A DNA stretch of 64,000 nt from Candidatus Babelota bacterium (lineage in GTDB: Bacteria > Babelota > Babeliae > Babelales > CAIQNR01). The stretch spans positions 160,001 through 224,000 of the forward strand of contig CBFHTA010000002.1 of assembly GCA_965658655.1 (NCBI GenBank), read 5' to 3'. Positions 19,400 through 50,167 of this stretch are shown here, one piece after another; the first letter of the stretch is position 1, and every line of letters begins with the position of its first letter. The position numbers and the translations under genes were made by a program. The notes under the pieces are model-generated. The model had not been told where the DNA came from and made no database searches. It saw only the letters and a list, made by a program, of their open reading frames with translations.

Positions 19400-21031
19400 T
19401 TACTCACCGCCTTTCTCTTTCAAGCTCTTTTGTAGATCCTGAATAAAAGGAGATAAAGGATAACGATAAGTACGTGACAATCGTTGCTCATCTGTTAATG
19501 CATCTTTAGCATTGACTACAAAAACAGCACCTTCTGAAGTTTTAAAGACTATTCTTTTCTTTCTTACTGCTTTTCTTAATTCAGTACGCAAGTCTTTCAT
19601 ATTAGATACTTTAGTACCATTAATCTCTTCTATAATAGCTCCCGGTTGAATAACCACTAACCGATCAACCAACGAACTTGGCATAACATGCGTTACAATA
19701 AGCGCTGGTTCCATTTGATGCTTAAACTCTGCGTATTTAATAAGAGCCGGTGCATGAGACAAAAGTGTTTGTACAAGATTTAAATTCAATGGTTGGAATA
19801 ACATACCACTAAAGATCTCGTAATCTAATGGATCTTCCCCCACAATCACTTTTTTAACTGGTGCATCATCTACATAATTAAATTTGAACGAAATATTTTT
19901 TTGCTTACCATTTCGATACAGAAGCAATGTAATATCTTGCCCTTCTTCCCAACGAGTAATAAAGTCCATAAAAGAAAGCTTTTCTTCATTCCAAGGCACC
20001 TTTAAATCACCATATTCATCAATTGGCAACCCATTCACTTCGTAAATCATATCGCCACTTTTTACCCCTGATTTGGCAAGGGGACCATTCGGATGAACCT
20101 CAATAACATAACAACCACTTGGTACCGGATTACCCAAATGCTTTGCTAAATCATAGCTTCCATTACCAACCAATACACCTAAGAAAGGACGACGTAATAC
20201 TTTTCTTGTACGTAAATCATTACATATCATTTTCAATTCATTAACCGGAATAATGTACCCAACATTTTGTGCGCTTACAATTCCTGCTACAGAAACACCA
20301 ATAACTTCTCCATTCAAGTTCAATGCAGGGCCACCAGAACTTCCGGGGTTAATAGGAGACGAAATTTGAATTAAATATTTACCACCCAAATGCTCTCTTC
20401 CACTTACTACACCAGAAGTACTCTTTAATGATGCTTGCCCTAAAGGATAACCTAATGCAAGTACTTCATCAGCACGATGAAGCAAATCTGAATCACCCAG
20501 TTTTAAGAACGGAAGTTGATCTGTTCCTAAAACACGTTTAATCATTTCTTTACCTTGTGGAGTAATACGGAGCAATGCCAAATCTCGCTCTGGAGCTTTA
20601 CCTAAAACTTCTACTGGAATAATCGCTTTCCCCATAGATGGAATTTTAATCCAAACAGATTGCGCTTGATTAACTACATGCATGTTAGTGACTATTTCAC
20701 CCTTATCACTAATAAAAAAACCGCTTCCAAAGCCACCACCTTGAGCAGGTGTTTCGTATGGTTTTAATATATTAATTTCAGCTGTTTGAGCAATAACCTG
20801 AACTACTGTATCTTTTGCCAATGACTGCACTTTTGCCCACGGTTGAGCCGACACCATTTTCTCTACAACTTTAACCTCTCCTTTGGGCCTATAGTCATAC
20901 CTCATTGTTCCACTAAGTGCCGCAAGAGAACGTGATAATTCTTTTTGGTTTTCGTAACCTACATACAAGAAACAACCAAAAACTAACACTACCGCAAGTA
21001 TCAAAATTCTTTTTAAGAAGCGCATATTCAT
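19400..21031 (-). CDS. HtrA/DegP-like trypsin serine protease with PDZ domains
   Basis: GSGFFI, TNMHVV (His), RDLALL (Asp), INPGSSGGP (Ser); two PDZ-like regions; N-terminal TM. Confidence 0.9.
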   Translation of the reverse strand: MNMRFLKRILILAVVLVFGCFLYVGYENQKELSRSLAALSGTMRYDYRPKGEVKVVEKMVSAQPWAKVQSLAKDTVVQVIAQTAEINILKPYETPAQGGGFGSGFFISDKGEIVTNMHVVNQAQSVWIKIPSMGKAIIPVEVLGKAPERDLALLRITPQGKEMIKRVLGTDQLPFLKLGDSDLLHRADEVLALGYPLGQASLKSTSGVVSGREHLGGKYLIQISSPINPGSSGGPALNLNGEVIGVSVAGIVSAQNVGYIIPVNELKMICNDLRTRKVLRRPFLGVLVGNGSYDLAKHLGNPVPSGCYVIEVHPNGPLAKSGVKSGDMIYEVNGLPIDEYGDLKVPWNEEKLSFMDFITRWEEGQDITLLLYRNGKQKNISFKFNYVDDAPVKKVIVGEDPLDYEIFSGMLFQPLNLNLVQTLLSHAPALIKYAEFKHQMEPALIVTHVMPSSLVDRLVVIQPGAIIEEINGTKVSNMKDLRTELRKAVRKKRIVFKTSEGAVFVVNAKDALTDEQRLSRTYRYPLSPFIQDLQKSLKEKGGE

Positions 21032-21115
21032 GGAGTATATCCCCGGTTAAAGATTCAAAAATCCTCTATCAGTTTACTCTTTTTACCAAGCTTGGGAAGG
21101 GCAGAAAAAAAATAA

Positions 21116-22711
21116 TTACGCCCCTAAAAGCTCTTGTACTAATGGTGTAATTTGATAATTAAACGACTGGGAAAGGCGTTTTTCATCTTGTAACATCTGT
21201 TGTGTATCTAAGATAATTAAATTATCATCTTTTGTTTTGAATGTAGTAAATTCACGATCCTTTGAAAGTGTCAATGCTTGGCGAGCATCTTTGAGACAAG
21301 ATACTTTATGATCATTAATCTTTACTACAATGTCTCCCACTCCAATAGCCCGTGTCTGCTGAGCGCATGAAGTTGCAAAAACTTGTGTAACAATAAGAGC
21401 AGGAACCTCTCTATGCGCTTCTTCAAAAGTATAAGAACCTAGTGAATCAGCAACAGCAGGTAACTGTTGCGCCACTTCTGGATCTCTGAAAAAACTCACC
21501 AAGTTCAACGAAAGATCTTGCAATAAAACACCACCAACAATTTCGTAATCTATAGCATCATAGGGAACATACTTCCAGTTAACTGGAGGCTCTTCTGGGC
21601 AATGAACCAATCCTTTAAATATTTTTTTCACCCCATTCCTATACACTTCTAATTCAATAGGACTATTAAGAGGAAGCGAAGACATATAGTCAGACACGCT
21701 CATTCGATCATTTTGTCCTGAAATCTTAACAGTTCCGTATACATCAGCAGCATACCCATTAACACGATATAACATGTCACCTGCTTGCAAACCCAAAATA
21801 TGTAACAAACCATGCTCATGTATTTGTGTTAAGTAACAACCACTCGGAGTCGGATTATTAAAAAAACGTGCAAGTTCATCACCTGAAGCATAACAATAAC
21901 GAGCGCCTAGGTAAGGCTTTCTAACAAGAGACGATTTTAGCATATCATTTTGAATTAATTTAAACTCTGCAATAGGAAGTGCATAACCAATATTCTGAGC
22001 ATTCACGTTTCCTGCAGTGTTAATACCAACAACTTCACCTTGCTTGTTGAGTGTGGGTCCACCAGAACTTCCTGGATTAATTGGTGTGCTCACTTGAATA
22101 CAACGCGATTCTACCAGTCTGCCCCTACCGGTTGTAATAGTTATATGCTCTCTTCCACTCACAACACCCGTACAACTTTTTAGAGCTTCTTGACCCAACG
22201 GAAACCCTAAAGCAAGTAACTCATCTGAACGTTCAATTTTATCTGAATCACCAAATACTAAATACGGTACGAATGTGTTTATATCTTTAATAAGAGCGCA
22301 ATCTTCGGGAGAAATTTGTAAAAGCGCAAGATCTCGTTCAGGACACACACTTTTAATTGTTACTTCAATCATTTTTTTACCGAATAAAAGAGGCATTTGA
22401 ATCCCCACATTCAATGCACCTGCTACCACATGGTAATTGGTAAGAAGCAAACCATCTTCACTAATCAAAAACCCCGAACCTCTACCTTCTTCACTTTCCA
22501 TTCGATACGGTTTCACAACATTAGGCTCTACACCATAAGAAAAAACTTGAACTACTGCATGCTCAGATTCTTTTTGAATCTCATACCAAGTTCTATCATT
22601 TTTAGTTGGCCCCCTTAAAATAGCGCTCAAAGAACCTAACGAATACACAAGTCCCGGGCAACCAATCAAAAAACCAAAAATAATCACTTTCTTAAGAGAA
22701 GAACTTTTCAT
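21116..22711 (-). CDS. HtrA/DegP-like trypsin serine protease with PDZ domains (paralog)
   Basis: GSGFLI, TNYHVV, RDLALL, INPGSSGGP; collinear with the neighbour. Confidence 0.9.
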   Translation of the reverse strand: MKSSSLKKVIIFGFLIGCPGLVYSLGSLSAILRGPTKNDRTWYEIQKESEHAVVQVFSYGVEPNVVKPYRMESEEGRGSGFLISEDGLLLTNYHVVAGALNVGIQMPLLFGKKMIEVTIKSVCPERDLALLQISPEDCALIKDINTFVPYLVFGDSDKIERSDELLALGFPLGQEALKSCTGVVSGREHITITTGRGRLVESRCIQVSTPINPGSSGGPTLNKQGEVVGINTAGNVNAQNIGYALPIAEFKLIQNDMLKSSLVRKPYLGARYCYASGDELARFFNNPTPSGCYLTQIHEHGLLHILGLQAGDMLYRVNGYAADVYGTVKISGQNDRMSVSDYMSSLPLNSPIELEVYRNGVKKIFKGLVHCPEEPPVNWKYVPYDAIDYEIVGGVLLQDLSLNLVSFFRDPEVAQQLPAVADSLGSYTFEEAHREVPALIVTQVFATSCAQQTRAIGVGDIVVKINDHKVSCLKDARQALTLSKDREFTTFKTKDDNLIILDTQQMLQDEKRLSQSFNYQITPLVQELLGA

Positions 22712-26799: not shown

Positions 26800-27786
26800 A
26801 TGCTATTAGGTAGTGGTTTATTTTGTTGTTTTATTTCTATTCTAACCTACTCAGTTTACATGGTTGCTCTTAAACCGGTAAAACACAGAATACTTACTCT
26901 TTTTTGGATAAACTGCGTTGCTTATCTGGGCTACATAACCATTTACTTTTTTCGCAAGCTTCATCTTGAACACGATGTACGAGCACTTGAACAATTACTT
27001 TTTACATTCACCCTATCTAACGTACCCCTTTATATTTTAATGGCATGTTTTTTCGTTGGATCATTTGTATTATTGAATTACTTAATGGATCATTTTGAAA
27101 TCTCCTTAATCACTCCTGTTACCGAAATCAGCATTCTTTTTACCACAATTGGCTACCTTTTACTCGGTAATCCTTTTTCTTGGATTGTAATGCTGAGCGT
27201 AAGCATTATTTTTATAGGAGCTATTACATCGGGTATGAAAACACTCTCTCTAGCCAACCCATTTAAAGATCTTAAACGAATTCCTCGCACACTGATTGCT
27301 GGAGGCACCCTTCAAGCATTTTTTGAATCAAGCGCCATGCTTATAACTTTTTTATGTACCCATCAAACCAATGTAAATAAAGCAATTTTCAACTTTTTAA
27401 ATATTGCATTTAAAAACATTTATGATGTTCCTTTTTCATTTCACCAGCCTTTCTATTACAACGTTGGAGTAAGATTTTTCATTGTTCTTATCTTTACGCT
27501 TTATCTGCTCATTCACAAAAAATATCGAATGGAAATTATTACCCACCCATTTGAAAATACTCAAAACACACTTACTCTAAGTCTTGTTTTTCTTATTTCA
27601 ATTGTTGCTTATCAAACGGCTTATCAAGATATACCAGACAAGAATGTTTTAGTTGCTTTACGTAAATTAACTATTCCTACTATTTTATTTATTAGTTACT
27701 ACACATTAGGTGAGCGAATAACACGTCCAAAACTTATTGGGTGTATTATAATTGTTCTAGGAGGAATGCTAAGCTTAACCGTGTAA
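26800..27786 (+). CDS. EamA/DMT-superfamily transporter
   Basis: About 10 TM helices; C-terminal LGERITRPKLIGCIIIVLGG DMT signature. Confidence 0.75.
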   Translation: MLLGSGLFCCFISILTYSVYMVALKPVKHRILTLFWINCVAYLGYITIYFFRKLHLEHDVRALEQLLFTFTLSNVPLYILMACFFVGSFVLLNYLMDHFEISLITPVTEISILFTTIGYLLLGNPFSWIVMLSVSIIFIGAITSGMKTLSLANPFKDLKRIPRTLIAGGTLQAFFESSAMLITFLCTHQTNVNKAIFNFLNIAFKNIYDVPFSFHQPFYYNVGVRFFIVLIFTLYLLIHKKYRMEIITHPFENTQNTLTLSLVFLISIVAYQTAYQDIPDKNVLVALRKLTIPTILFISYYTLGERITRPKLIGCIIIVLGGMLSLTV

Positions 27787-27808
27787 TTGTTTATAGGGAA
27801 ATAATGCT

Positions 27809-28792
27809 ATGATGTCTTTATTCAATTTTTCTATCGCATTTAGTTTTGTAGTTCTATCGAGCCTTGCTGCCGTTATTTTAAAACAAGCGCCCAAAAAAAA
27901 CATTTTAGTTTTGTGGACAATGCTCATCATGTTTTTTCTCGCACATGTTGCATTTATTATTCTAAAAATACAAAGTGGTATGACTCTTTACCAAACTATT
28001 CTGTTTATTCTTCCTCTATACACAGATAATATTCCTTTTTATCTTATACGAGGAGGATCCATTATATTTGGAAATGTTTTAATTTTCTATTTACTAAATA
28101 ACTTCCCCGTTTCTAAAGTTATCCTTGTGCTACAACTGGCAATTCCTATTTCAGCTATCTGTTTTACCTTACTTGGCAACCCCATTACATGGAATGCTAT
28201 TTTGGGAACGGTGATTGTAACTATTGGAGCCCTTATCTCTGGATTCAAAAAATTTGAATTTCCGAATGTATTTAAACCTCTTTTAGAAATCCCCCCTAAA
28301 CTTTATATCATTGGTCTTTTAAAGGCATCTGCGCGTGTATTGGGGTCATTAATCCTCTTTATTCTTTCAACTCGAACAACAGAAACCGTTGCGCTACACC
28401 ATATTCTTAAACATTCTTTATTTTTTGATTTAACGCATCTTACTTTCTATACCACACTTGACTACGCTATTGGTATGGCCCCATGGATTTTAACTACCTA
28501 TTTCCTTTACTTCTTTCTGATTGAAAAAGTGCGATGGGGTGATATGACAGAGTATGCAAACAAACACACTCAATTAATACTCCTAAATGGCACAGTTATG
28601 TCTTTCAGTTATATAGCGTATGCCTATGCGTTTGGACATATAAAAGATAAATTTTTAATGTCTGTTATGGGGAAATGCCAAATTCCTTTAACACTTATAT
28701 TTGCTGTTTATCTGTTAAACGAAAAAATAACTTTCCCTCAAAAAATAGCTACTGTCTTTATTTTAGCTGGAGGCGCCATTAGCATTTTGTAA
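27809..28792 (+). CDS. EamA/DMT-superfamily transporter (paralog)
   Basis: About 10 TMs; LLNEKITFPQKIATVFILAGG; shares GA.ISGFK.FEFPN.FKPLL.IP with the next gene. Confidence 0.75.
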   Translation: MMSLFNFSIAFSFVVLSSLAAVILKQAPKKNILVLWTMLIMFFLAHVAFIILKIQSGMTLYQTILFILPLYTDNIPFYLIRGGSIIFGNVLIFYLLNNFPVSKVILVLQLAIPISAICFTLLGNPITWNAILGTVIVTIGALISGFKKFEFPNVFKPLLEIPPKLYIIGLLKASARVLGSLILFILSTRTTETVALHHILKHSLFFDLTHLTFYTTLDYAIGMAPWILTTYFLYFFLIEKVRWGDMTEYANKHTQLILLNGTVMSFSYIAYAYAFGHIKDKFLMSVMGKCQIPLTLIFAVYLLNEKITFPQKIATVFILAGGAISIL

Positions 28793-28807
28793 AAAAAGGA
28801 AAATGTA

Positions 28808-29791
28808 ATGATTTCATTGTGGCATATCGGTTGTATTTTTTCAGGAATTTTTTCCTATATCTTTTTTAATATCCAAATAAAAAAAGCTCACTCCACAACA
28901 TTCACCTGTTTGAGTTCCTACATTTGTGCTAATGTCTTATTCTTTTTGGTATTTTTCATACAAAAATGGGCAACTACAGGATCTTTTCATAACGCAAGCT
29001 CACATTTAGGAAAAATCTTTTGTACAGATATACTTTGGAGTATTATAGGAAGTCTTATCCTGCTATTAATGTCCATTATATTTGCACACTTACTCGAGAA
29101 CTATCCCGTTTCAAACGTAACAATGGTGCTTCAACTCGGTGTGCCCATTAGTTCTTTTGGTTATTATCTAGTAGGCAATATAGCTTCTCCTTCACAATTC
29201 ACAGGAATCATCATCATTACCCTAGGAGCAATTATTTCTGGCTTTAAACAATTTGAATTTCCTAATATTTTCAAACCGCTCCTCTCTATCCCTTTAACAT
29301 TGTATGCTTTAGGAATTTTACGTAGCATTATTTCTTCAATGGGAAAAATTGTAGTTTTTATTGTTTCACAAAAAACAACCCAAACTCTCGATTTTCATCA
29401 TCTAATCAATAACTTTGATGACTTTTCCCCTGTGTCTAATGTATTTGAGGTTGCACTAGATTTTGTAGTAGGACGTAGTCCCTTTCTAATTTTTACTTTT
29501 ATTTTATACATACTTTATCTGGAACAATTTTCTTTTAAAAATATTATTAAAAAAACCAAACAAGATGCTTACTCTATTATTACAGCAGGATTATTAATAA
29601 GTATTTATACCGGACTCTATTATTACGTCTTCCAAACAATCGAACACAAATCTGTACTCTCTGCTCTTAATAAATTTAAAATACCATTTACCGTTATCAT
29701 CGCCAGCTTCGTATTAAAGGAAAAAATTAATTTCCCCAAAAAAGTTGCCACCTTTTTAATTGTAGCAGGAGGTCTCTTAGCAGCTTTATAA
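28808..29791 (+). CDS. EamA/DMT-superfamily transporter (paralog)
   Basis: About 10 TMs; VLKEKINFPKKVATFLIVAGG. Confidence 0.75.
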   Translation: MISLWHIGCIFSGIFSYIFFNIQIKKAHSTTFTCLSSYICANVLFFLVFFIQKWATTGSFHNASSHLGKIFCTDILWSIIGSLILLLMSIIFAHLLENYPVSNVTMVLQLGVPISSFGYYLVGNIASPSQFTGIIIITLGAIISGFKQFEFPNIFKPLLSIPLTLYALGILRSIISSMGKIVVFIVSQKTTQTLDFHHLINNFDDFSPVSNVFEVALDFVVGRSPFLIFTFILYILYLEQFSFKNIIKKTKQDAYSIITAGLLISIYTGLYYYVFQTIEHKSVLSALNKFKIPFTVIIASFVLKEKINFPKKVATFLIVAGGLLAAL

Positions 29792-29939: not shown

Positions 29940-30332
29940 TTACTCAGCTGACTTTTCAGTTGCTTTTTTTGGAGCTGTCTTTTTAGGAGCAGTTCCAGCA
30001 CCCAAAGATTCGATGCGAATAACCGTCAAACACTGTCTGTGTCCTTTTTTAACACGAGACTTCTTACGACGTTTAAATCTGAAAATGGTTAATTTAGGTC
30101 CTTTTGTTTGTTTAACAATAGACGCCTTAATTGCACCTGTGAGTGTCGGCTGACCGATTTCAAACTTATCGTCAGCGAGCTTGCGAAAGAGAACATCGCT
30201 AAATTCAACGGTATCACCATCTTGTCCAGAAAGCTTTTCTACCGCAATTGTTTTTCCTTCGATGGCTTGGTATTGTTTACCACCTGTTTGGAAAATAGCG
30301 TATCGCTCAAACTCAGTTGTTTGTGCTGCCAT
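29940..30332 (-). CDS. rplU: 50S ribosomal protein L21
   Basis: YAIFQTGGKQY and KRRKKSRVKKGHRQ signatures; Lys/Ala-rich tail. Confidence 0.97.
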   Translation of the reverse strand: MAAQTTEFERYAIFQTGGKQYQAIEGKTIAVEKLSGQDGDTVEFSDVLFRKLADDKFEIGQPTLTGAIKASIVKQTKGPKLTIFRFKRRKKSRVKKGHRQCLTVIRIESLGAGTAPKKTAPKKATEKSAE

Positions 30333-30513
30333 GCTTATATCCTTGCATTATAACTGATTAAAATATAACCCATAAAGAGGTTCTATACTATCAGAGAACG
30401 GTCTTTTTGTCTCGTTTTTTATTGAATATCCCACCCTCTTGCTTTTTTTTAGCCAATTAGGTAAGTTTGTGAACTTATTTTAGGGCTCATTTATACTTCA
30501 GAGGTTGAAAGCT

Positions 30514-31767
30514 ATGAAAAGAATTTTAACACTAAATAAGCTCATTTTAACTCTCATGGTCATTACTTCACCCCTCTACGCAACCATTAATACTCAAATA
30601 AATAAAACCATAGAACTTCTTAAAGAAACCGACCGTGCTCTTGAAGGCTGGTCAAAATTACAATATAAATGGCTTTGGTCAAAAAAGGACCAAGAGGCAA
30701 CAATAAGCTCATCCTGCCTGAAACTTAAAAGAACTCAGCAGGAGCTCGCTACAACCCTGGCAAGGCTCAATTCTAACCCAGAACAAGACCATAAAGCCGT
30801 TTTAAGAGAAAGCGCTGCTCATATAAAGCAATATGCTCCTCCCTCCTATTTCAGAAGAAATGGGATTCGTTACGCTACTGTAGCAGTAGGTTTAATGGGT
30901 AGTGCCTATTTTCTTTCTAGAAATGGATATGATGACGAAGGGCAACATATAGTAGAAAATTTTTATACGCATCACATTACAGAACCCATAATCAATATGT
31001 ATAACATTCTAACTAATAAAAATGTGAATCCTATAGTTTTAAAACAAGATCCAAAAGCCGCTCTTAAGTATATTGAACGAAAAACTAATCTTGATATTGA
31101 AAACGCAAAACGAGATCCTCGGTTAAAAGAAGTAGCCGCTAGTTGTTTAGATATTACTATTCCTGTAGAAGAAATCCCTCAAAAAGACAAAATTGCTTTC
31201 TCAAAAGCAAAAAGAACCTTTCACACTATTCGCCTTGCTGAACAAGTTGATCAATTTACGTGGATGGATGTGCTTAGCATCAAAATACCCGAAGATTTAA
31301 AGCATACTATTGAAAGTACTAACACAGTAGTCGAATGGGTTGATATAGAAAAAATGTTTCTTGCAAAGAAACTAGAAGAAATATCAAAAAAGCTTAACTT
31401 AACAATTGAATTCTTGGCAGCCACTCCCGCACTCGTTGGGTCGTATTTCTGTTTAAAATCGATAGGAAAATATTTTACCCATTATAAAGTAAATATCAGA
31501 TACAAACCATTAAAAAAAATACTTATTAAGCTACAACTACAACACAATCAAGAGCGATACACAAACCTCCCCTCTCCTGCAGTAAAAGGAATGAACATCT
31601 ATTGGTTGTCACAACTTAAAGAAGCCATACCTCACATTCCTGTAGTTGACCGCACAGCTTATAGCGAGTACCTAGAACGACTCGAAGATAACACATTACA
31701 ACCAAAACAGAAGATAACCATTATTGAAAACATGCTCCGAGATATTTCCTGTTTACAACAAATATAA
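30514..31767 (+). CDS. exported protein resembling eukaryotic NCA2/DGS1 family
   Basis: Signal peptide ending PLYA; PSYFRRNGIRYATVAVGL, FYTHHITEPI, FLAATPAL, NMLRDISCL recall NCA2/DGS1 motifs (recognised by eye). Confidence 0.65.
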   Translation: MKRILTLNKLILTLMVITSPLYATINTQINKTIELLKETDRALEGWSKLQYKWLWSKKDQEATISSSCLKLKRTQQELATTLARLNSNPEQDHKAVLRESAAHIKQYAPPSYFRRNGIRYATVAVGLMGSAYFLSRNGYDDEGQHIVENFYTHHITEPIINMYNILTNKNVNPIVLKQDPKAALKYIERKTNLDIENAKRDPRLKEVAASCLDITIPVEEIPQKDKIAFSKAKRTFHTIRLAEQVDQFTWMDVLSIKIPEDLKHTIESTNTVVEWVDIEKMFLAKKLEEISKKLNLTIEFLAATPALVGSYFCLKSIGKYFTHYKVNIRYKPLKKILIKLQLQHNQERYTNLPSPAVKGMNIYWLSQLKEAIPHIPVVDRTAYSEYLERLEDNTLQPKQKITIIENMLRDISCLQQI

Positions 31768-32343
31768 TTATAAAGCTTTTTTTAGTAATTGCGCAATTGG
31801 TTCATACTTAAGTTGTTTTGCAAGTTCAAAGGCACTCATATGTTGCACTTCCTGTTGATTGTCTAATTTAAATTCACCCTTAGTGTTTTGCTTTGCACCG
31901 CGCTTAAGCAACTCCTGCACACCGCTTTGGTCTGCTTTAGAAACTGCAAGCATTAAAGCTGTATGGCCAGATTCTGTTGTGGTGTTAACATCTGCACCCT
32001 TTTCAATAGCTTCAAATGCCGCTGCTAAATTTTTTGCCTCTAAAGCATCGAGTAAATCTTGTTCCAAAACTAGGTTGTTCAACTTTTGCTTTAATGCTTC
32101 ATCAGTAAAAACCAATGACGTTTTAGCACGTAATAATGTTGCATATAAACGAGGAGACACTTGCTTTGAACGCTCAAAGAGATTGGCTTTTTTGCCTTGA
32201 GGAACAAAGGTAATATAGTTAACAAAATCTGCTCGGCTTGGTGCCTTATCGGCAAGTTTATTAACCTGTCTAATTAAAATTTCTTCTGAACGAGCCTGCA
32301 CACTTACAGAACACACAAAAAATATAAGAAAAAAGCGCTTCAT
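31768..32343 (-). CDS. exported ankyrin-repeat protein
   Basis: Signal peptide ending VQA; KGADVNTTTESGHTALMLAV...LLKRGA. Confidence 0.85.
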   Translation of the reverse strand: MKRFFLIFFVCSVSVQARSEEILIRQVNKLADKAPSRADFVNYITFVPQGKKANLFERSKQVSPRLYATLLRAKTSLVFTDEALKQKLNNLVLEQDLLDALEAKNLAAAFEAIEKGADVNTTTESGHTALMLAVSKADQSGVQELLKRGAKQNTKGEFKLDNQQEVQHMSAFELAKQLKYEPIAQLLKKAL

Positions 32344-32377
32344 AGTACCCTCTTTTAATTATTTACTTATCAGACTC

Positions 32378-32938
32378 TTACTTATCTTTCTTTTTCTTAG
32401 ACTTTTTCTTTTTAGCATCTTTAGCTTTTTTATGATTTGCTTGAAGAACCTTCAAAGACTTTAAAGAAAGACTATTACTCTTTTTAGGAGCCTTCATTAC
32501 ACTATTGGTAACTTTCACTCCAACATCTTTAACAAGTAGATTCACAACTCTAGCTGCTTGCGCGGGAGTCTTAGATTGTAAAGCTCCTATTAAAACACTT
32601 TCTTTACTCTTTTTTGAAACATGTCTCATTAGAATCTTAAGAGTATCTACCTGACCTGCTTGTGCTGCTAGTGTAGCCGCTTTTTTATAGTTTCCTGGAG
32701 TTATTTCACTTCCATAATTTTTAATAAGAGCCGCTAAAACCTGATTGCTGCCTTGTTGAGCTGCATACTCTAAAACTGATTTACCTGCAATTTGCGTCTT
32801 AATGCCGTTGTGAGCATTAAGATATCCTATTACCCCTGTTGGTTGATTTTCTAAAATAGATTGTTCAATCTGCTTCTTAGAAACTGCGTGCACCCCGGTA
32901 CTTAAGACTAGTAAGCTTATTGCTATTATTTTTTTCAT
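32378..32938 (-). CDS. exported degenerate ankyrin-repeat protein with basic tail
   Basis: Signal peptide ending VHA; GKSVLEYAAQQG, LAAQAGQVDTLKIL; KKKKSKKKKDK tail. Confidence 0.75.
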   Translation of the reverse strand: MKKIIAISLLVLSTGVHAVSKKQIEQSILENQPTGVIGYLNAHNGIKTQIAGKSVLEYAAQQGSNQVLAALIKNYGSEITPGNYKKAATLAAQAGQVDTLKILMRHVSKKSKESVLIGALQSKTPAQAARVVNLLVKDVGVKVTNSVMKAPKKSNSLSLKSLKVLQANHKKAKDAKKKKSKKKKDK

Positions 32939-32956
32939 TTTTATTTTCCTCTCTTT

Positions 32957-33466
32957 TTAATTATGAAAGTCATGCTTCCATGCCGTATCAACCATTCTCT
33001 TATGAAATTTTTTAGGTTCATATACCCCTCTACGAGAATAGCATCTGTTATATGTACGCTTATAAGCCTTTATAAGACGTGCAGCTGCTTCAACCGCATT
33101 AAGAGACACATGATTTGTTTTAGTAAGATCTGTACCCACATCAACTAGCCATTGTGTAACTTCTGGTTGTCCATAGCTCACCGCATGCATAAGTGCATTC
33201 TTACCTGTTCTATCATGTGCATTAACAAGCAACAACTTCTCTTCAGGTGTTGCTAAGGAATAATATTTTTCACGCATACCAGCAAGATTCCCTTCTTGAG
33301 CATCTTTAAACCATTTTACCTTTTTGGGGGTAGATTGAGACATCTGCACAACCTCATGCTTTAATTGTGAGTAATAATCAAGCGTTTTAGCTGCACGAAA
33401 ATAAGAAGCCTTTAAACAAGGTCCACCCAAAAAAAGTAATGTTACTAATAACCTCTTCATCTTCAC
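32957..33466 (-). CDS. exported ankyrin-repeat protein
   Basis: Signal peptide ending LKA; VNAHDRTGKNALMHAVSYGQPEVTQWLVDVG. Confidence 0.8.
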   Translation of the reverse strand: MKMKRLLVTLLFLGGPCLKASYFRAAKTLDYYSQLKHEVVQMSQSTPKKVKWFKDAQEGNLAGMREKYYSLATPEEKLLLVNAHDRTGKNALMHAVSYGQPEVTQWLVDVGTDLTKTNHVSLNAVEAAARLIKAYKRTYNRCYSRRGVYEPKKFHKRMVDTAWKHDFHN

Positions 33467-33659
33467 TCCTCAAATTCAATACAAAATTTTTTAAATAAAT
33501 TCTTCCCTTTAGAGTAAGAACGGTGATGGTTTACTGACTTATTTTCAAGAATACCATTCTGTTTTACATCAACCATTCCATTTTCCTTACAGTTGGTTTT
33601 CACGGTTCTTTTTCTCAACTTTCCTTTTTTTAGCAATCATTTTTTCTGTTATATAATTT

Positions 33660-34340
33660 TTATTTGCGCTTGATATAATTTTTAAGAATTTTTATAACTT
33701 CATGCAGTTTACGCATTACTGCTTTATGATTTTTTTCAAACTGCTTCGGAGGGTGACTATTCAAGTCTTTCTCATAAGAAGCCTTAACTGTTTTTAATAG
33801 ATCATGAAAACTTCTATTAACCTTTATTTTTCCACTTTCCAACAACTTTCTTAAAACTTCAGGATGAGCTCCCACGGCGGCTAATGCAAGTGGAGTATAT
33901 CCTTGAGAATTAACTACGTTTACATCCGCACCTTTTTTCAAAAGTAACTTAACAATACTCTTTTGATTATTCATAACAGCCCATAATAATGGTGTCATTT
34001 TATAACTACCCACCACATTTACTGGTTCTTTATCATTGATTAATAATGTTGCAATTTTATTATAAGCTTGAATATCTCTACCTTCAGTAGCGTTCATACA
34101 AGCATAAAGCAAGGCTGTATTACCACTACTATCTTTTAGACCTGGAAAAAAATTTGTTTTTAAAAGCCGCTTAACTTTAGGAACTTTACCTAACATAGCC
34201 GCCTTGATAAGCTTCTTACCGTTCGCTATAGCAACATCTTTTTTAGATTTAATAACATTTTTATTTTTATCTAACAAATCGAATGCACCGGCATTAAAAC
34301 TTACACCACCTAGAACAAACAATAATAATAGTTTTTTCAT
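33660..34340 (-). CDS. exported ankyrin-repeat protein
   Basis: Signal peptide ending AGA; GNTALLYA, MTPLLWAV...LLKKGADVN, GYTPLALAA. Confidence 0.9.
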   Translation of the reverse strand: MKKLLLLFVLGGVSFNAGAFDLLDKNKNVIKSKKDVAIANGKKLIKAAMLGKVPKVKRLLKTNFFPGLKDSSGNTALLYACMNATEGRDIQAYNKIATLLINDKEPVNVVGSYKMTPLLWAVMNNQKSIVKLLLKKGADVNVVNSQGYTPLALAAVGAHPEVLRKLLESGKIKVNRSFHDLLKTVKASYEKDLNSHPPKQFEKNHKAVMRKLHEVIKILKNYIKRK

Positions 34341-34352
34341 TTATCTCTCCAT

Positions 34353-36419
34353 TTAAACTTGATTAATATTAGGGAAATTTTGTAAAATTATTTCTTTTCC
34401 CTCTTCTTCTAAATCTGAAGATTGTAGATAATCAAAAATAAACTGTGCCATTTCTTTATCTTTTTCTACATCTAAAGACTTGATTACTCTCATAATTCCT
34501 AAACTTTTATTTTTTATAAGTTCTTTAAGAATTTCTTGATTTTCATCAAGAGTTATACGTACAACATCCTTTATCAACTTTTCTTGCAAACGCCCCATTC
34601 CCTTTAATCCTAGTTTTTTTCTCATAGATCTTATTTTGTTAAAATCTAAAAATAACATAAGCATGTTAAGATCATTTTTTTTAACAACCTTTCTTATAGA
34701 GCTTGCTGATGGATATACATTGTACAGTAACAATTGCAATACTATATCTTGTTTATCTTGAATGACTGCTTCTTCTAAAATCTCACTTGCTGGACATTTA
34801 GATGCTAGAGCCTGGAGCAAATTCAGATCATCTCTAGAAATTACTTCTGAAACTAAATCAGTACAATCATCATTATTAATAATTAATGATTGTAATACTT
34901 TTGAAGATAAAGCACTTAATACTTTTGCTGGTACATCTATGTTACCCGTCTTAAAAGAAGAACTTTCTAATACTTGTGACAAAAACCTCTCTTTACTCTC
35001 AAAACCCAAACTATTGAACTCTGTATCATCCATTTTTAATGCTTCATTAACTACAGGAACCAAAAAAGCGGTCAAAGAAAAATATGGATTGTTATTTGAA
35101 AAATCAATCATTTTTTTCAAATAAGGTTTAATTTTCTCTATTTCACTAGAGTCTTTTTTGAATCGGATTTTTGAATGCATTGAATCAAAAACCCATTCAG
35201 CATGTATTTCATAATCTTGAGAAGAATCTTTTATACCAACCTCTACAAAAGAACGCATGTTATCTTTTATATCAACCCCTACAAGGTCATCTAATACAGG
35301 TTCTGAAATAAGCTTAAGATCAATTTTACGAACATCAGAAGAAAGATGTTCCCCAAATGATTCAAATGTGTCTGTTTTTAAACCAAATAAATAATTTAAC
35401 ATATCTAATGAATTTTTAGCATTACTTTCTAATTCATATCCATCGTGACAATATTTAATCCCTTTAATACCAGAAACTAAATTCATAAATTCATTTTTTG
35501 CGTTATCATAGTAATTAAAATTATTAAATCTTTTATATTTCTCAATAAATGCTTTTAATTCAAAGTTAATATTAATCCCAGGAGGCAAAAGAGAGATATC
35601 AAGTTCTTTTTTAATAGGATTATATAATAGCATATTAATAAATCCCCATAATGCTTGCTCCACACAAATAGCTACTTTATGATTGTTATAATCTGCATAT
35701 AATTGCTGTCGTGGGATTAATTTTTGATAATAATTCAATTGACTATTAATGAGTAGCGAAACAACTTGCTCTGAATCTGCATTGTCAAATGATAATTGTT
35801 CATCTAATAAGTTAGTTTTCTGAGGTACAATTTCTAAACTAGTTAATCCCTTTATATAATCGGATAAATTTTGTGAATTTTCACTCATTGCCATTGCAAA
35901 CATAGCAAGTATATGATCTCTTTCTTTAGAAGGTATTTTATTTAATAATGCTACAAATTCTCTTATCTTCTTTTTAAAACCCTTAAATTTCAATCCTTTT
36001 TCTTTATGTAGCGCACGCCATTCTTCCCCTATATCAGACGCTAAAAAATCCTCAACATCAATATTTTCAATCTGAGCCTTTACAAATGCACCAAACAATT
36101 TTGGAGTTATAGAATAAAAAGGATTACTTGGTCGAGCTGTCTTTCGTAATCGACTATCCAAACAATTAAAAAGTAAATGTGCTAATCGACCACGATCAGT
36201 TGGGGTATCCCCTTCTCCCTCACTATATATTGCCTTCCCCCATTCACCTTCTAAGCCTATCAATCCTACTAATGGAGAATACATCTTTTTATCATCAGGT
36301 AATGATGTAAATAAATTACCACTATATAAATGACGTTGAGATGCCCAATCAGCTGTTTGCACAGGCAAAACAATTAAAAAAGCCACCAATAAAAAGAAAA
36401 AGCGTTTTGATATTTCCAT
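34353..36419 (-). CDS. large exported protein with conserved Cys/His core and degenerate helical repeats; paralog of 52651..54282
   Basis: ATG 36419 gives a signal peptide ending VQTA; AICVEQALW..INMLLYN, MNLVSGI, YELESN..N.L..LNYLF shared with the paralog. Confidence 0.8.
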   Translation of the reverse strand: MEISKRFFFLLVAFLIVLPVQTADWASQRHLYSGNLFTSLPDDKKMYSPLVGLIGLEGEWGKAIYSEGEGDTPTDRGRLAHLLFNCLDSRLRKTARPSNPFYSITPKLFGAFVKAQIENIDVEDFLASDIGEEWRALHKEKGLKFKGFKKKIREFVALLNKIPSKERDHILAMFAMAMSENSQNLSDYIKGLTSLEIVPQKTNLLDEQLSFDNADSEQVVSLLINSQLNYYQKLIPRQQLYADYNNHKVAICVEQALWGFINMLLYNPIKKELDISLLPPGININFELKAFIEKYKRFNNFNYYDNAKNEFMNLVSGIKGIKYCHDGYELESNAKNSLDMLNYLFGLKTDTFESFGEHLSSDVRKIDLKLISEPVLDDLVGVDIKDNMRSFVEVGIKDSSQDYEIHAEWVFDSMHSKIRFKKDSSEIEKIKPYLKKMIDFSNNNPYFSLTAFLVPVVNEALKMDDTEFNSLGFESKERFLSQVLESSSFKTGNIDVPAKVLSALSSKVLQSLIINNDDCTDLVSEVISRDDLNLLQALASKCPASEILEEAVIQDKQDIVLQLLLYNVYPSASSIRKVVKKNDLNMLMLFLDFNKIRSMRKKLGLKGMGRLQEKLIKDVVRITLDENQEILKELIKNKSLGIMRVIKSLDVEKDKEMAQFIFDYLQSSDLEEEGKEIILQNFPNINQV

Positions 36420-36426
36420 TTTCAAC

Positions 36427-36679
36427 CTACAATTTATTATATTGAACTCCATTATCTTTATAAAATAAACTATAACCAATTCTGGCAATAAAAATCAACG
36501 ATCTTGTATCTCTAAGCTTATTTTGACTCCATTTAAGCCTAATCATTAAAAACAATTTTAGGTTCCACATTTCTTTTACAATTTTTGCCAGTTCTGTGGC
36601 TAATATAAGATTTTCATCAGCACCTATTAGCACTGAACTAAAAGAACAAAGGGGGGAGAAAAGACTTATGGAGCTTCAT
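36427..36679 (-). pseudogene. possible small frameshifted gene remnant
   Basis: ATG 36679 joins ORF 36427..36633 if one C is removed from the C6 run (G6 at 36651-36656 on +). Confidence 0.3.
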
Positions 36680-36724: not shown

Positions 36725-39262
36725 TTACTCTTTAAAACTCCATAACACATCAAACGCTTTTTTAGGTGATAGGTTTTCAAAATCAAGTGATTTTAATTTC
36801 TCTAATTGTTCTTTTACTGCAGCAAGTTCTGTACGCAACACTGTTAGTTCTTGGTTTGATTCTTTTTGCACAGGAATAAATGTCGATTGTTGCAGGGAAA
36901 GTTCTTGAACCACCTGACGGGCACGGGTAATAACCGCTTCTGGCAAGTGTGCCAAGTGAGCAACATCTAAACCAAAGCTACCGTTGGCAACACCACGTTC
37001 TATTTTATGCAAAAACACAATACCATCGTTAGTCTTTTTACTTGCGGCGTAATAACTTGCAATACCATTAAATTTTTCTGGCAGCGTTGTTAGTTCATGA
37101 TAATGCGTAGCAAACAAACAGCGAGCTTTTACCTGTGTATAAAGATATTCAATAACTGCTTGTGCAATAGCAAGGCCATCGAATGTGCTTGTGCCACGAC
37201 CCACTTCGTCTAAAATAACTAAACTATTTTGCGTAGCATACTGACAAATATGTGCGGTTTCTTCCATCTCTACCAAGAACGTACTTTTACCTTCTGCAAC
37301 GTTATCTGAAGCGCCAATACGAGTAAAAATTCTATCCAGTAAAGGTAACTGTGCCGATTCCACAGGAATAAACGATCCACATTGCGCCATAATACTCAGC
37401 TGTGCAACTTGTCGTAAGTAGGTCGATTTACCGCCCATGTTTGGTCCGGTAATTACCCATAGAGATTGCTCATCAGTTAAATCTGTGTTGTTAGGAATAA
37501 AACTTGAGCCTAACTTCTGTTCTATCACCGGATGTTTACCATCAGCAATTTTTATGTCTCGATTACTACTTATTTCTGGACGTGTATACCCACGTTCATA
37601 AGCACATACACCAAACGAAACCAGTGCATCTAATTGCCCAAGCGCATGGGCCAATTTACGTAGTTGAGAAACATGCGGACGAACCTGTTGCTTTACAGTA
37701 TCAAAAAGTTCATGTTCAAGTTGATCGCACTGCGCACGTGCTGTCATAATCTCTTGTTGCAAGGTTTGTAATTGTGGATACGTATACCGTTCTTTTGCAA
37801 CCAATGTTTGCCTGCGAATATACCCTTCTGGAACCAAATGTAAGTTTGGCTTAGTAACTTCTATGTAGTATCCTTGCACATTATTATATCTAATTTTTAA
37901 CGAACTAATTCCTGTTGCTTCTTGCTCTTCTTTTTCAAGTCTTAAAATTGCTTGCTGACTATTATTAACTAGATCCCGATACCTATCTAGTTGCTCATTA
38001 AAGCCTACTTTAATCGTCCAATCTGTTGTGCTATCAGTATTAAGCGCACCACATAAAAACTGGCATAACTCTGTAAACTCTGAACAATGCGAACCAAGTG
38101 TATGTAATAACGCGGCGGTATTAGAAAGTTGTTTTTTAATAGCAGGAATTGCGCAAAGTGTACGTTGCAAATGTACATAATCATGCAACGAACCTCTACC
38201 CAATGCAATACGCCCAATCACTCGCTCTGCGTCTCCAATTGAACGTAATTGTTTATACAGTTCTTGTGTAGTTACATGGTCTGTTTTTAAATACTGCACT
38301 GCATCTAAACGATGCTCTATCATTGTCTTATTGAGCAACGGGCGTACTAACCATTTTTTTAATGTTCGGGAACCCATGGCTGTTGCAGCAGTATCTAACA
38401 ACGCAAACAACGTGTTGCTTCTCCCGCCATCTTGATTGTTTTTAACCAATTCTAGATTACGTTGTGTTGCAAGATCGAGCACCATAAAATCATCCGGCTG
38501 ATACAAATGAAGCTGTGTGAATTCAGACAATGCGGCTTGATTATTTTTCTTTAAATATGCATGGAATGTACTGAGTGCTTTTTCTAGCGCCTTATTAGTA
38601 GTAATACTTTCCTGAACTGTTGACTGAAGCTGCTTTTGTGCCCAATCCTGCATATCATCACTAGGCATCACAGAGCTAACAAAGTACCCCTGTTTTTTAA
38701 ATACCTGAGAAAACATCTTGGTGGTATCATCATCTGGCAATAAAATTTCATCTGGAAAAAAACGTGCAAGCTCAGACTCTAAAACCTTTGAAGAACCCGC
38801 ATCAAAGGTAGTTGCATATAATTGCGCAGTTAAAAGTTCACCAAACAAAAGTGCCCATTTATTTTGTACTGCTACAAAAGACATTACATAGGACGCAGAT
38901 TTATCGTCAAGCAACTTAGCATCGGTAAGTGTACCAGGAGTCAACACTTGCGTAACACCACGCTTTACAATGGTGCCAGGCTTTGGTGGCTCAAGTTGCT
39001 CACAAATCACCACACAAAAACCACCCTTAACAAGTTTAGTTAAATAATGATCAAGCGCGTGAACAGGAACGCCACATAGTGGAATATCTTCACCCTTCTC
39101 TTTACCGCGCTTAGTTAACGCAATACCAAGAAAAGAAGCTGCGTTTTTAGCGTCATCAAAAAAAAGTTCGAAAAAATCCCCTACTTGGAAAAATATTAAT
39201 GCATCAGGATACTGATCTTTGATTACATGATACTGTTGCATCAATGGAGTAGGTTTCTTCAT
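36725..39262 (-). CDS. mutS: DNA mismatch repair protein MutS
   Basis: TPLMQQY, FQVGDFFELF, TGPNMGGKSTYLRQ, STFLVEM, DEVGRGTST, FATHYHEL. Confidence 0.98.
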   Translation of the reverse strand: MKKPTPLMQQYHVIKDQYPDALIFFQVGDFFELFFDDAKNAASFLGIALTKRGKEKGEDIPLCGVPVHALDHYLTKLVKGGFCVVICEQLEPPKPGTIVKRGVTQVLTPGTLTDAKLLDDKSASYVMSFVAVQNKWALLFGELLTAQLYATTFDAGSSKVLESELARFFPDEILLPDDDTTKMFSQVFKKQGYFVSSVMPSDDMQDWAQKQLQSTVQESITTNKALEKALSTFHAYLKKNNQAALSEFTQLHLYQPDDFMVLDLATQRNLELVKNNQDGGRSNTLFALLDTAATAMGSRTLKKWLVRPLLNKTMIEHRLDAVQYLKTDHVTTQELYKQLRSIGDAERVIGRIALGRGSLHDYVHLQRTLCAIPAIKKQLSNTAALLHTLGSHCSEFTELCQFLCGALNTDSTTDWTIKVGFNEQLDRYRDLVNNSQQAILRLEKEEQEATGISSLKIRYNNVQGYYIEVTKPNLHLVPEGYIRRQTLVAKERYTYPQLQTLQQEIMTARAQCDQLEHELFDTVKQQVRPHVSQLRKLAHALGQLDALVSFGVCAYERGYTRPEISSNRDIKIADGKHPVIEQKLGSSFIPNNTDLTDEQSLWVITGPNMGGKSTYLRQVAQLSIMAQCGSFIPVESAQLPLLDRIFTRIGASDNVAEGKSTFLVEMEETAHICQYATQNSLVILDEVGRGTSTFDGLAIAQAVIEYLYTQVKARCLFATHYHELTTLPEKFNGIASYYAASKKTNDGIVFLHKIERGVANGSFGLDVAHLAHLPEAVITRARQVVQELSLQQSTFIPVQKESNQELTVLRTELAAVKEQLEKLKSLDFENLSPKKAFDVLWSFKE

Positions 39263-49136: not shown

Positions 49137-49575
49137 CTAACCTTCTCTATACAAACGAATTTTTTCGCTTTCAACTTCAAGAATAATTTTATTGGGTCTT
49201 TCTTTGTGCAATCGAAACCATGCAGAGATCATGTTCAAAAACTCATTCACCGTTGTTTTGTATGCATTTGGATCTGGATATTCATCAAAATCTGGATCAA
49301 CAAACCATCCAATTAAAACAAAATTACCTTCTTTTTGTTGTTTAAATACTACCTTGTACTTATCAATACTCTTTCTTGCTTCTAATATCTTTTTAACAAC
49401 TTCTTGTCTTGTCCAATCGGAAGGAAAGAATGTAGACCATTTTGGTTCTTTTCCAAACATTCCCCATTTAAACTTATATACACCATTTTTATCTTGAACC
49501 ATTTCTAAAATTTCTATGGGTTGGCCCAAAAACTTTTTATTTTTAAAATTTGTCTTTTTCAAATCATGATGCCAA
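49137..49575 (-). pseudogene. orphan EndoU toxin-tip fragment fused to an immunity-gene C-terminal fragment
   Basis: WHHDLKK...STFFPSDWTRQEVVKKILEARK homologous to ~50270-50516; tail resembles the C-terminus of 49718..50158; no proper 5' end. Confidence 0.75.
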
Positions 49576-49663
49576 GCCGTCTTGGCCCCTCCTTCGCATA
49601 AAGCTTTCGCGCGCGCGGCAAGGCGGAGTTTATCCTGAGCAAAGTCGAAGGGCCGGACACGGC
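49576..49663. mobile_element. GC-rich MITE/REP-like insert
   Basis: GC-rich ~88 bp; imperfect terminal inverted repeats gccgtcttggccc / gggccggacacggc; sits exactly where toxin homology stops. Confidence 0.55.
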
Positions 49664-49717
49664 CATTTTTTTAAAGGAAAACATTCTGAGAGAGAATCAA
49701 CTTTACCCGCTTAGCCC

Positions 49718-50158
49718 CTAATCAAGAACATCTTCTCCAGCAAGATTTTTTGTAGGTGCATCTTCTGCATACACACGAATATTATTATCATCTGATAATT
49801 CAAGAGTAATACGATTCTTATCTTCTCCATAAGCCCATATCCATTGCTTTATTCCATTCAAAAGTTTTTCTTTTGGAATAACAACAGAAGGAGGTTCTTC
49901 GGGTGCATATTCATACCCTATAAGAATATTGTTCCTTTCAAATTCACAGTCAAACATATTCGTTGCAAACGGAGTATTTTTTTTAATTCTCTCAAGCATT
50001 CGAGCTGTTTCTTCAGGATTCCCCACTATACCATCTAAAAACAACTGCATTAAAGTTCCAGCTTTTGTATCTGACCCCTGCCATATGTGATAACAATATT
50101 TTCCTTTTGTTTCACTAGAAACAGGATAAAAAGTCTTTGTACATACCGATTTCTTCAT
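49718..50158 (-). CDS. putative cognate immunity protein
   Basis: 146-aa ORF without signal peptide, 9 bp downstream of the toxin stop; partial homolog within the orphan module. Confidence 0.7.
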   Translation of the reverse strand: MKKSVCTKTFYPVSSETKGKYCYHIWQGSDTKAGTLMQLFLDGIVGNPEETARMLERIKKNTPFATNMFDCEFERNNILIGYEYAPEEPPSVVIPKEKLLNGIKQWIWAYGEDKNRITLELSDDNNIRVYAEDAPTKNLAGEDVLD

Positions 50159-50167
50159 ATTTACCTT

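Follow-up and report, generated by a model that had tools for sequence, protein, structure and literature searches.

The locus considered here raises the question of how a bacterium comes to carry a gene resembling that of a mitochondrial membrane protein, and what such a gene might do there. The window analysed is a 64,000-nucleotide stretch of contig CBFHTA010000002.1, from the genome of a Candidatus Babelota bacterium (928,713 bp in 4 contigs, 95.4% complete; the phylum is referred to below as Dependentiae). It contains an open reading frame (ORF) of 417 amino acids (aa) which an initial annotation, relying on the order of motifs in the family, had proposed to encode an exported homolog of fungal Nca2 and plant DGS1, either acquired by horizontal transfer or acting as a mimic directed at host mitochondria. 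NCA2/DGS1 has been treated as a mitochondrial protein confined to eukaryotes, and its mechanism is poorly understood. From the profile comparisons described below there is very little doubt that the 417-aa ORF is homologous to this family, as a genuine but divergent member.

When the single sequence was scanned against Pfam-A, the top match was NCA2 (PF08637; E 0.0014, 18.4 bits), while an NCBIfam scan returned only a meaningless match to VapB (E 0.0076; 16.8 bits against a cut-off of 60). In a six-frame search of the window's genome, the Pfam NCA2 model matched the locus with 13.8 bits. Among 5.8 billion proteins, a word-indexed search identified six relatives at 49–52% identity, five of which already carried a precomputed PF08637 label, and six of the seven family members matched NCA2 when scanned singly against Pfam (best E 1.9e-8). 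The profile of these seven sequences retrieved 117 proteins at E ≤ 0.001 from 1.84 billion representatives (HMMER), with named eukaryotic NCA2 proteins reached at E 5.5e-7 to 3.4e-5. A Pfam scan was made of 109 of the retrieved proteins (excluding seven sequences of 101–388 aa, mostly fragments, and P0006, which had been scanned before); 77 lay above the NCA2 cut-off, several with full-length coverage of the domain, 13 lay below it and 19 had no match. The strongest scorers were named eukaryotic proteins and included a Diversispora epigaea "NCA2-domain-containing protein" (287.7 bits), a protein of Diphylleia rotans (185.8 bits), a cluster including Diacronema lutheri (174.2 bits), an Aphanomyces "Nuclear control of ATPase protein 2" (164.3 bits) and a JGI protein named "nuclear-control-of-ATPase protein 2".

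As a test free of transitive chaining, two separate alignments were compared using hhalign, one of 25 genome-verified Dependentiae ORFs (19 of them cut from genomes of the phylum) and one of 17 NCA2 proteins from eukaryotes (the organism is named for 16 of them, and P0083 bears only a JGI product name). These aligned with a probability of 99.9% and an E-value of 3.9e-34 over 390 collinear columns, spanning positions 29–450 of the 473 in the Dependentiae profile and 106–642 of the 677 in the eukaryotic one. The match reaches well beyond the N-terminal edge of the Pfam domain and so reflects a collinear full-length architecture and not a single shared domain; the YW helix, A..LG.L, PS..R.W..Y, F...EP, ELNF..A..P, G...Y and the C-terminal QK...I..M are all co-aligned. 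At the genome level, the Pfam NCA2 hidden Markov model matched 64 of the 261 genomes of the phylum, 54 of them with scores over the cut-off, and none of 14 control genomes. The homology put forward in the initial annotation is thus upheld by the profile check, both through the relatives that match Pfam NCA2 and through the hhalign comparison.

The motifs on which that annotation had relied are present for the most part. Four of the five can be read literally, namely P110-x4-R115-x2-I118-R-Y-x3-AVGL, F150-x3-H154-x3-P158, G359-x3-Y363-x-L-x2-L368 and N406-M-x-R-x3-C-L414, while the fifth, given as F.FLAA.PA, is approximate, reading IEFLAATPA with I in place of the first F. The position written as (W/I) is indeed occupied by I118, but the near-invariant Trp of the family aligns with G117 and not with I118. 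It is the profile statistics, and not the motifs themselves, that place the resemblance to NCA2 above chance. In the alignments P110 corresponds to a eukaryote-invariant Pro and residue 117 to a eukaryote-invariant Trp, which is found in all 17 aligned eukaryotic NCA2 proteins and in no fewer than 90% of the homologs from Dependentiae; P110, P158, P305 and G359, all invariant in eukaryotes, are kept in the 417-aa protein, and P158 and P305 are near-invariant across an alignment of 110 sequences. The codon for Gly117 (GGG, 30862–30864) is one base away from TGG (Trp), and the residue may reflect a genuine change in this lineage or a miscalled base in the assembly. Conservation within the family is highest in the C-terminal bundle, and the N-terminal bundle aligns by hhalign with the part of the eukaryotic proteins that precedes the Pfam domain. 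The 417-aa protein is a minimal form lacking the inserts seen in relatives of 470–650 aa.

The distribution of the gene within Dependentiae was determined using two profiles. A narrow, genus-level profile found it in 42 of 261 genomes, and a broad one built from 33 Dependentiae ORFs in 103 of them, which include 86 of the 189 genomes of high quality and represent 53 of the 145 genera. At the level of GTDB families, which are given here by code, the distribution is bimodal, the gene being near-universal in f4 (14/14), f11 (10/10), f13 (5/5), f18 (11/12) and f1 (14/15, the single miss being a 59%-complete genome), present also in f16 (2/2) and f21 (41/80), and essentially absent from f2 (1/41, a weak match), f17 (0/35), f19 (0/8), f8 (0/8), f5 (0/7) and f14 (0/6). 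These counts are descriptive and not statistics, as related genomes are not independent. Identity between homologs of different families is approximately 20%, indicating fast evolution. No other prokaryotic group turned up among the homologs, either in the search of 1.84e9 proteins or in the 14 control genomes. A search of genome contigs for related loci with the narrow alignment gave 303 pattern matches of which 0 were confirmed. Two sequences, P0008 (the ortholog from the same genus) and L023, carry the NCBI labels "Alteromonas naphthalenivorans" and "uncultured Pseudomonadota bacterium", respectively, and were rejected as members of other phyla; their genomes place in the phylum of the window, and the labels are probably wrong. 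Tandem duplication was also observed, with two adjacent full-length copies in genera g143 and g144 (L038, L041, L043; G247–G258) and three matches in some of the genomes G247–G258.

The relationship of the bacterial and eukaryotic proteins was then addressed with two trees. The first had 83 rows and 487 columns (IQ-TREE, posterior mean site frequency model, quick search) and comprised 32 genome-verified Dependentiae, 15 named eukaryotes and 36 unlabelled matches, the latter picked for strong Pfam scores or nearness to the 417-aa protein. All 15 eukaryotes and four unlabelled rows fell on one side (Shimodaira–Hasegawa-like approximate likelihood-ratio test, SH-aLRT, 96), with all Dependentiae and the other 32 unlabelled rows on the other. 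For a more careful tree of 38 rows the longest branches were dropped, P0083 and P0115 being assigned to the eukaryotes from their place in the first tree, and P0111 to Dependentiae from the way it is labelled. This tree separates 21 Dependentiae from 17 eukaryotes with ultrafast bootstrap (UFBoot) and SH-aLRT values of 100 and 100, a split found in 100% of 200 bootstrap trees. The window's protein pairs with its same-genus ortholog (100/99) inside the clade of family f1 (100/99). The horizontal transfer between domains that had been suggested for the gene fits this topology, and the trees are consistent with one transfer, in either direction, which was ancient and not recent; the midpoint root lies inside Dependentiae diversity in the 83-row tree and on the branch between the groups in the 38-row tree.

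Gene order provides a second view of the gene's history. In a sample of 39 loci of the phylum, taken with flanks of approximately 1.5 kb and probed with the window's ribosomal protein L21 (rplU) and MutS, the NCA2-like gene adjoins rplU in 19, mutS in 19 and either of the two in 26. The linked loci belong to families f1, f9, f11, f13 and f16, while the f21 loci have neither neighbour. Because of this synteny and the family-wide presence, the gene is, as judged from the genomes compared, an old chromosomal resident that is vertically inherited, and a recent horizontal transfer was ruled out on the same grounds. A patchy, accessory distribution with recent acquisition is not what is observed, given the family-wide presence, the synteny, the single clan in the trees and a GC content of 0.365 in the bin 30001–32000, within the window's range of 0.28–0.39.

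An AlphaFold2 (AF2) model made from the 110-sequence alignment is all-helical, with a mean predicted local distance difference test (pLDDT) score of 91.5 and a predicted template modelling score of 0.70. Helices are predicted at residues 4–51, 58–87 and 94–106 (pLDDT mostly >90), 117–137, 146–166, 180–211 and 223–247, followed by a 70-residue helix (260–329) and a C-terminal bundle (331–415); pLDDT across the C-terminal bundle region is approximately 96–98. By sequence, the PDB gave nothing better than E 0.28 and holds no NCA2 structure. Foldseek against the PDB, in which NCA2 is thus not represented, gave 0 matches at E ≤ 0.001 (best XPO1, TM-score 0.13), VIA-align against 48,161 chains reached a best Z of 10.4, below the ~13 expected by chance for helical models, its matches being generic three- or four-helix bundles over residues 11–112 or 321–416, and the ESM Atlas gave no usable match.

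Two hydrophobic segments are found at corresponding places in both groups, the second aligning with the eukaryotic ELNF.F.A..P segment. Mean best-18 Kyte-Doolittle values are 1.12 in 25 Dependentiae and 1.17 in 17 eukaryotes for segment 1, and 1.59 and 1.96, respectively, for segment 2. Basic residues are biased to the N-side of segment 1 in 24 of 33 Dependentiae (4 opposite) and 10 of 17 eukaryotes (1 opposite), and to the C-side of segment 2 in 16 of 33 (9 opposite) and 14 of 17 (0 opposite). As the segments and the charge bias are the same in the two groups, a hairpin-like topology seems to be common to the Dependentiae and eukaryotic proteins. By a crude hydropathy test, a signal-like N-terminal segment is present in 31 of 39 Dependentiae ORFs and in 0 of 15 named eukaryotic NCA2 proteins; the eight ORFs without it mostly have uncertain starts or lie at contig ends. 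Export, as had been proposed for this protein, is therefore predicted by that test.

The homology, the architecture, the distribution, the synteny and the clear separation from eukaryotes are established by these observations, from which we infer a direction of transfer, export, a location and a function for the 417-aa protein. It is a shortened, divergent NCA2/DGS1 member in a clade specific to Dependentiae, which may have arisen from one ancient transfer between eukaryotes and a bacterium ancestral to part of the order, most likely from host to bacterium, followed by vertical inheritance at a fixed place between rplU and mutS. The eukaryotic architecture is kept (N-terminal bundle, two hydrophobic segments with their charge bias, central helical region and C-terminal bundle), and a Sec-type signal-like N-terminal segment would have been gained in the bacteria. 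On the reading preferred here, the protein would act like plant DGS1, as a membrane-anchored helical scaffold holding two membranes together so that lipids are exchanged, either within the bacterium's own double-membrane envelope or at its interface with host membranes. Such exchange would serve an organism whose relatives reportedly lack lipid synthesis: Chromulinavorax is described as importing host ATP and as giving no evidence of lipid synthesis (PMC6561590). DGS1 itself is reported to be an outer-mitochondrial-membrane protein bridging TOM40/20 and the inner-membrane protein MIC60, and to belong to the MTL lipid-trafficking complex, its mutation altering lipid composition and mitochondrial biogenesis (PMC7865480, PMC10069894), and Nca2 of the jakobid Andalucia has been suggested to be linked to MICOS (PMC7050145). 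As a whole, this explanation, with its ancient host-derived transfer, vertical inheritance and DGS1-like contact scaffold, is given about an even chance of being right. The part that assigns a DGS1-like contact scaffold to the double-membrane envelope is drawn by analogy and is held more tentatively, at somewhat below even.

Comparison with known systems shows where the likeness ends. The 417-aa protein shares with fungal Nca2 (nuclear control of ATPase 2; PF08637) a collinear homology over nearly the whole length, two hydrophobic segments with their charge bias, the conserved Pro, Gly and Tyr residues and the C-terminal block of motifs. It differs in its bacterial host and in its length (417 aa compared with ~600–750 aa), lacking approximately 100 residues at the start of the eukaryotic protein and a long insert that precedes PS..R.W, as well as in its added signal-like N-terminus, its Gly at the conserved Trp, its Pfam score below the cut-off and a central block (eukaryotic SLERM... 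and LLIQVQK.KVD) that is only weakly conserved. Yeast Nca2 has a role in the expression of ATP synthase subunits, which could not apply literally in a bacterium. Legionella has acquired effectors from its hosts, the eukaryotic-like proteins of an intracellular bacterium, and here too a eukaryotic family is found in a bacterium living inside eukaryotes, with inter-domain transfer as the likely origin. Host-derived effectors are typically patchy, served by dedicated secretion systems and often recently acquired, whereas the NCA2-like gene is ancient, keeps its place next to rplU and mutS, and is found in nearly all genomes of several families. The working model is borrowed from Arabidopsis DGS1 (DGD1 SUPPRESSOR 1), described as the plant ortholog of Nca2 (PMC7865480, PMC7050145), and specifically from its influence on lipids as a TOM40/20–MIC60 bridge. 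Unlike the plant, the bacterium has no TOM complex, and no significant MIC60-like partner was found in the window's genome: the Mitofilin/Mic60 model scored 12 bits there, which is not significant, and also matched 6 of 14 controls. A "mitofilin-like" coding sequence is mentioned for Chromulinavorax (PMC6561590).

Several points weigh against this explanation. The 417-aa protein alone lies below the Pfam gathering cut-off for NCA2 (18.4 against 20.6 bits), so that by Pfam's own rule the single sequence formally falls outside the family; on the window's genome the same model stays short of E 0.001, and Gly stands where the family has its near-invariant Trp. The trees are unrooted, and the eukaryotes of the 38-row tree are 12 fungi, one oomycete, one haptophyte, Diphylleia, P0083 and P0115, a thin sample; plants, amoebae and discobids are missing because a further search for homologs, starting from protist NCA2, brought back nothing beyond the cluster of the query itself. 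Arabidopsis DGS1 is likewise outside the alignments, its link to NCA2 being taken from papers and its relation to the 417-aa protein therefore indirect. As for the membrane, segment 1 is weakly hydrophobic, and the charge bias contradicts the positive-inside rule in the case that the N-terminus serves as a cleaved export signal and both hydrophobic segments cross the inner membrane, so a purely inner-membrane role is not secure. The signal-like segment itself says little, since signal peptides are reported on 44% of Chromulinavorax proteins (PMC6561590).

The misfit with the positive-inside rule and the modest hydrophobicity of the segments keep alive a different reading, in which the protein would be exported (e.g., by Sec and outer-membrane vesicles), insert into the outer membrane of the host mitochondrion, replace NCA2/DGS1 at the TOM–MICOS bridge and recruit or remodel mitochondria. 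Its homology to a mitochondrial outer-membrane protein would agree with this, as would the retention of moderately hydrophobic, eukaryote-type segments with basic flanks in the same pattern, the signal-like N-terminus confined to the bacterial members and the fast evolution between families, which resembles that of many host-interaction genes; in the window the gene is also followed by four small ORFs with signal-like N-termini, ankyrin repeats occurring in two of these. Chromulinavorax is described as replicating inside a deep invagination of a host mitochondrion, which wraps the replication body, and as releasing vesicles (PMC6561590). A route by which helical membrane proteins would be secreted into the host is, however, hypothetical. 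Being near-universal, mostly single-copy in several families and set amid housekeeping genes, it looks more like a core gene than an effector, and whole families such as f2 and f17 do without it although members of the phylum are described as host-dependent (PMC6561590). It is this core-like distribution and housekeeping neighbourhood that favour the envelope scaffold over an accessory effector. We regard action on host mitochondria as unlikely, yet worth serious attention, and its most specific form, an exported stand-in for NCA2/DGS1 that hooks onto TOM–MICOS and drives mitochondrial recruitment and wrapping, as slightly less probable again; what is left falls to readings other than the envelope scaffold and the mimic.

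The opposite direction of transfer must also be weighed. NCA2 would then have arisen in Dependentiae-like bacteria and passed to the eukaryotic stem, making the bacterial form ancestral and the mitochondrial one derived. The two groups do form separate clans, with the bacteria not nested within eukaryotes, the Dependentiae proteins have diverged from one another no less deeply than those of the sampled eukaryotes, and no homolog from other prokaryotes turned up that could act as an outgroup; the position of the midpoint root within Dependentiae in the 83-row tree points the same way, but midpoint roots are unreliable where rates are unequal, and that of the 38-row tree moves to the branch between the groups. 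NCA2 is reported from fungi, plants and Andalucia (PMC7865480, PMC7050145), and the Pfam scan of the profile matches adds an oomycete, a haptophyte and Diphylleia, a breadth suggesting that the last eukaryotic common ancestor already had it. Members of the phylum are described as living in obligate association with eukaryotes (PMC6561590). Owing to this breadth in eukaryotes and the absence of the gene from large parts of the phylum, transfer from host to bacterium is more likely, and the reverse appears improbable. Least credible is a chance resemblance, or convergence, between helical, low-complexity membrane proteins, with the ORF unrelated to NCA2. All-helical proteins can give spurious profile matches, the single-sequence Pfam match is sub-threshold and the structure searches found generic helical bundles only. 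This explanation is nevertheless effectively refuted, on profile evidence, by the hhalign result, whose collinear columns include conserved Pro, Trp and Gly residues, and by the genome-wide comparison in which the Pfam model exceeds its cut-off in 54 of 261 genomes of the phylum and in none of the 14 controls; the 77 retrieved proteins above Pfam's curated cut-off, several with the full-length domain, also speak against it.

Automatic PF08637 labels on some Dependentiae homologs already exist in databases. In literature that lay mostly outside subscription journals, none of the papers listed connected NCA2 or PF08637 to Dependentiae, TM6, Babela, Babelota or Vermiphilus, and nothing relevant on Babeliales and eukaryotic-like proteins was found among those listed. 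What is new is the recognition of a large, old and signal-bearing bacterial clade of a supposedly eukaryote-only mitochondrial family, and not a new fold or system. The clade offers a second, independent evolutionary sample of the family's essential parts, with the two membrane segments, PS..R.W, F...EP, the C-terminal motifs and the 417-aa minimal form. It also provides a candidate for how Dependentiae, reliant on host ATP and probably on host lipids, organise membrane contacts, in a phylum of which one cultured member reportedly remodels the host mitochondrion (PMC6561590), and raises a testable question of ancient gene exchange between eukaryotes and intracellular parasites. A protein that did stand in for NCA2/DGS1 on host mitochondria would be the first case of a bacterium mimicking a mitochondrial contact-site protein; in a bolder variant, eukaryotic NCA2 would itself be descended from such a bacterial protein.

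The coordinates of the gene, its parts and its neighbours are collected in Table 1. The frame on the forward strand is intact and could begin at TTG 30505 or ATG 30514, giving 420 or 417 aa (table-11 ORF listing). ATG 30514 is the likelier start on account of the spacing of the AGAGG element and the MK... N-termini, which all six close relatives share in the alignment; on the same grounds the TTG start was ruled out. The coordinates given in the initial annotation are therefore retained. A pseudogene was ruled out by the intact ORF and the intact relatives. A scan for promoters and terminators over 30250–31900 gave three promoter-like sites compared with 5.2 expected, and nothing usable.

Table 1. 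Features of the NCA2-like locus and its surroundings in the window (nucleotide positions of the window; residues of the 417-aa protein).
Feature	Coordinates	Strand	Basis or remark
NCA2/DGS1-family coding sequence, 417 aa (P0001)	30514..31767 (incl. stop)	+	ORF translation; six intact relatives; family-level homology
Shine-Dalgarno-like AGAGG	30500..30504	+	9 nt before ATG 30514; consensus resemblance only
Signal-peptide-like N-terminal segment, residues 1–24 (MKR, hydrophobic stretch, ...LYA)	30514..30585	+	Crude hydropathy test
N-terminal helical bundle, residues 25–112	30586..30849	+	(Y)W46 and L82 (A..LG.L); AF2 helices
PS(H/Y)F.R.W..Y motif, residues 109–120: PPSYFRRNGIRY	30838..30873	+	Alignments; G117 replaces near-invariant Trp
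First, moderately hydrophobic segment (candidate transmembrane segment 1), residues 117–137	30862..30924	+	Positionally conserved, after W..Y
F...H...P motif, residues 150–158	30961..30987	+	Alignments; eukaryotic consensus F...WV.EP
Pfam NCA2-matched stretch, residues 291–407	31384..31734	+	Profile positions 154–285 of 289
Second hydrophobic segment (candidate transmembrane segment 2), residues 294–316: LNLTIEFLAATPALVGSYFCLKS	31393..31461	+	In 70-residue helix
C-terminal helical bundle, residues 321–417	31474..31764	+	G359...Y363, PKQK motif, NMLR...CL
rplU (ribosomal protein L21), divergent upstream neighbour	29940..30332	-	Pfam Ribosomal_L21p, E 3.9e-30
Five ORFs inserted between NCA2-like gene and mutS	31768-36488	-	The two genes are direct neighbours in many relatives
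mutS, convergent downstream anchor, ~5 kb off	36725..39262	-	Pfam MutS I, III, IV, V

Four of the five ORFs inserted before mutS are small with signal-like N-termini (191, 186, 169 and 226 aa), and it is two of these that carry the ankyrin repeats; the fifth, of 711 aa, has no Pfam family and lies where the GC content of the window is lowest (0.281). Housekeeping genes of the window include, besides rplU and mutS, those for uvrA, ruvB, ftsW, a class II tRNA synthetase, HtrA-type proteases and TrkH/TrkA. ORFs with ankyrin repeats also occur. Among the 52 window ORFs scanned, 24 were without a Pfam family.

A number of other features were observed in the window. Directly upstream of rplU are three tandem paralogous genes for EamA/DMT-type transporters (26800–29791, + strand; 328, 327 and 327 aa), an array which may serve metabolite import, as is typical of host-dependent bacteria. 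Two tandem genes encode HtrA-like serine proteases with PDZ domains (19400–22711, - strand; 543 and 531 aa). Large ORFs without a Pfam match at E ≤ 1e-5 are found on the - strand at 3906–7172 (1088 aa), 14163–16133 (656 aa) and 43048–45885 (945 aa). Bacterial EndoU nuclease domains occur in two ORFs of 141 and 521 aa (49137–51733, - strand), and endoU is listed among the putative host-degrading factors of Chromulinavorax (PMC6561590).

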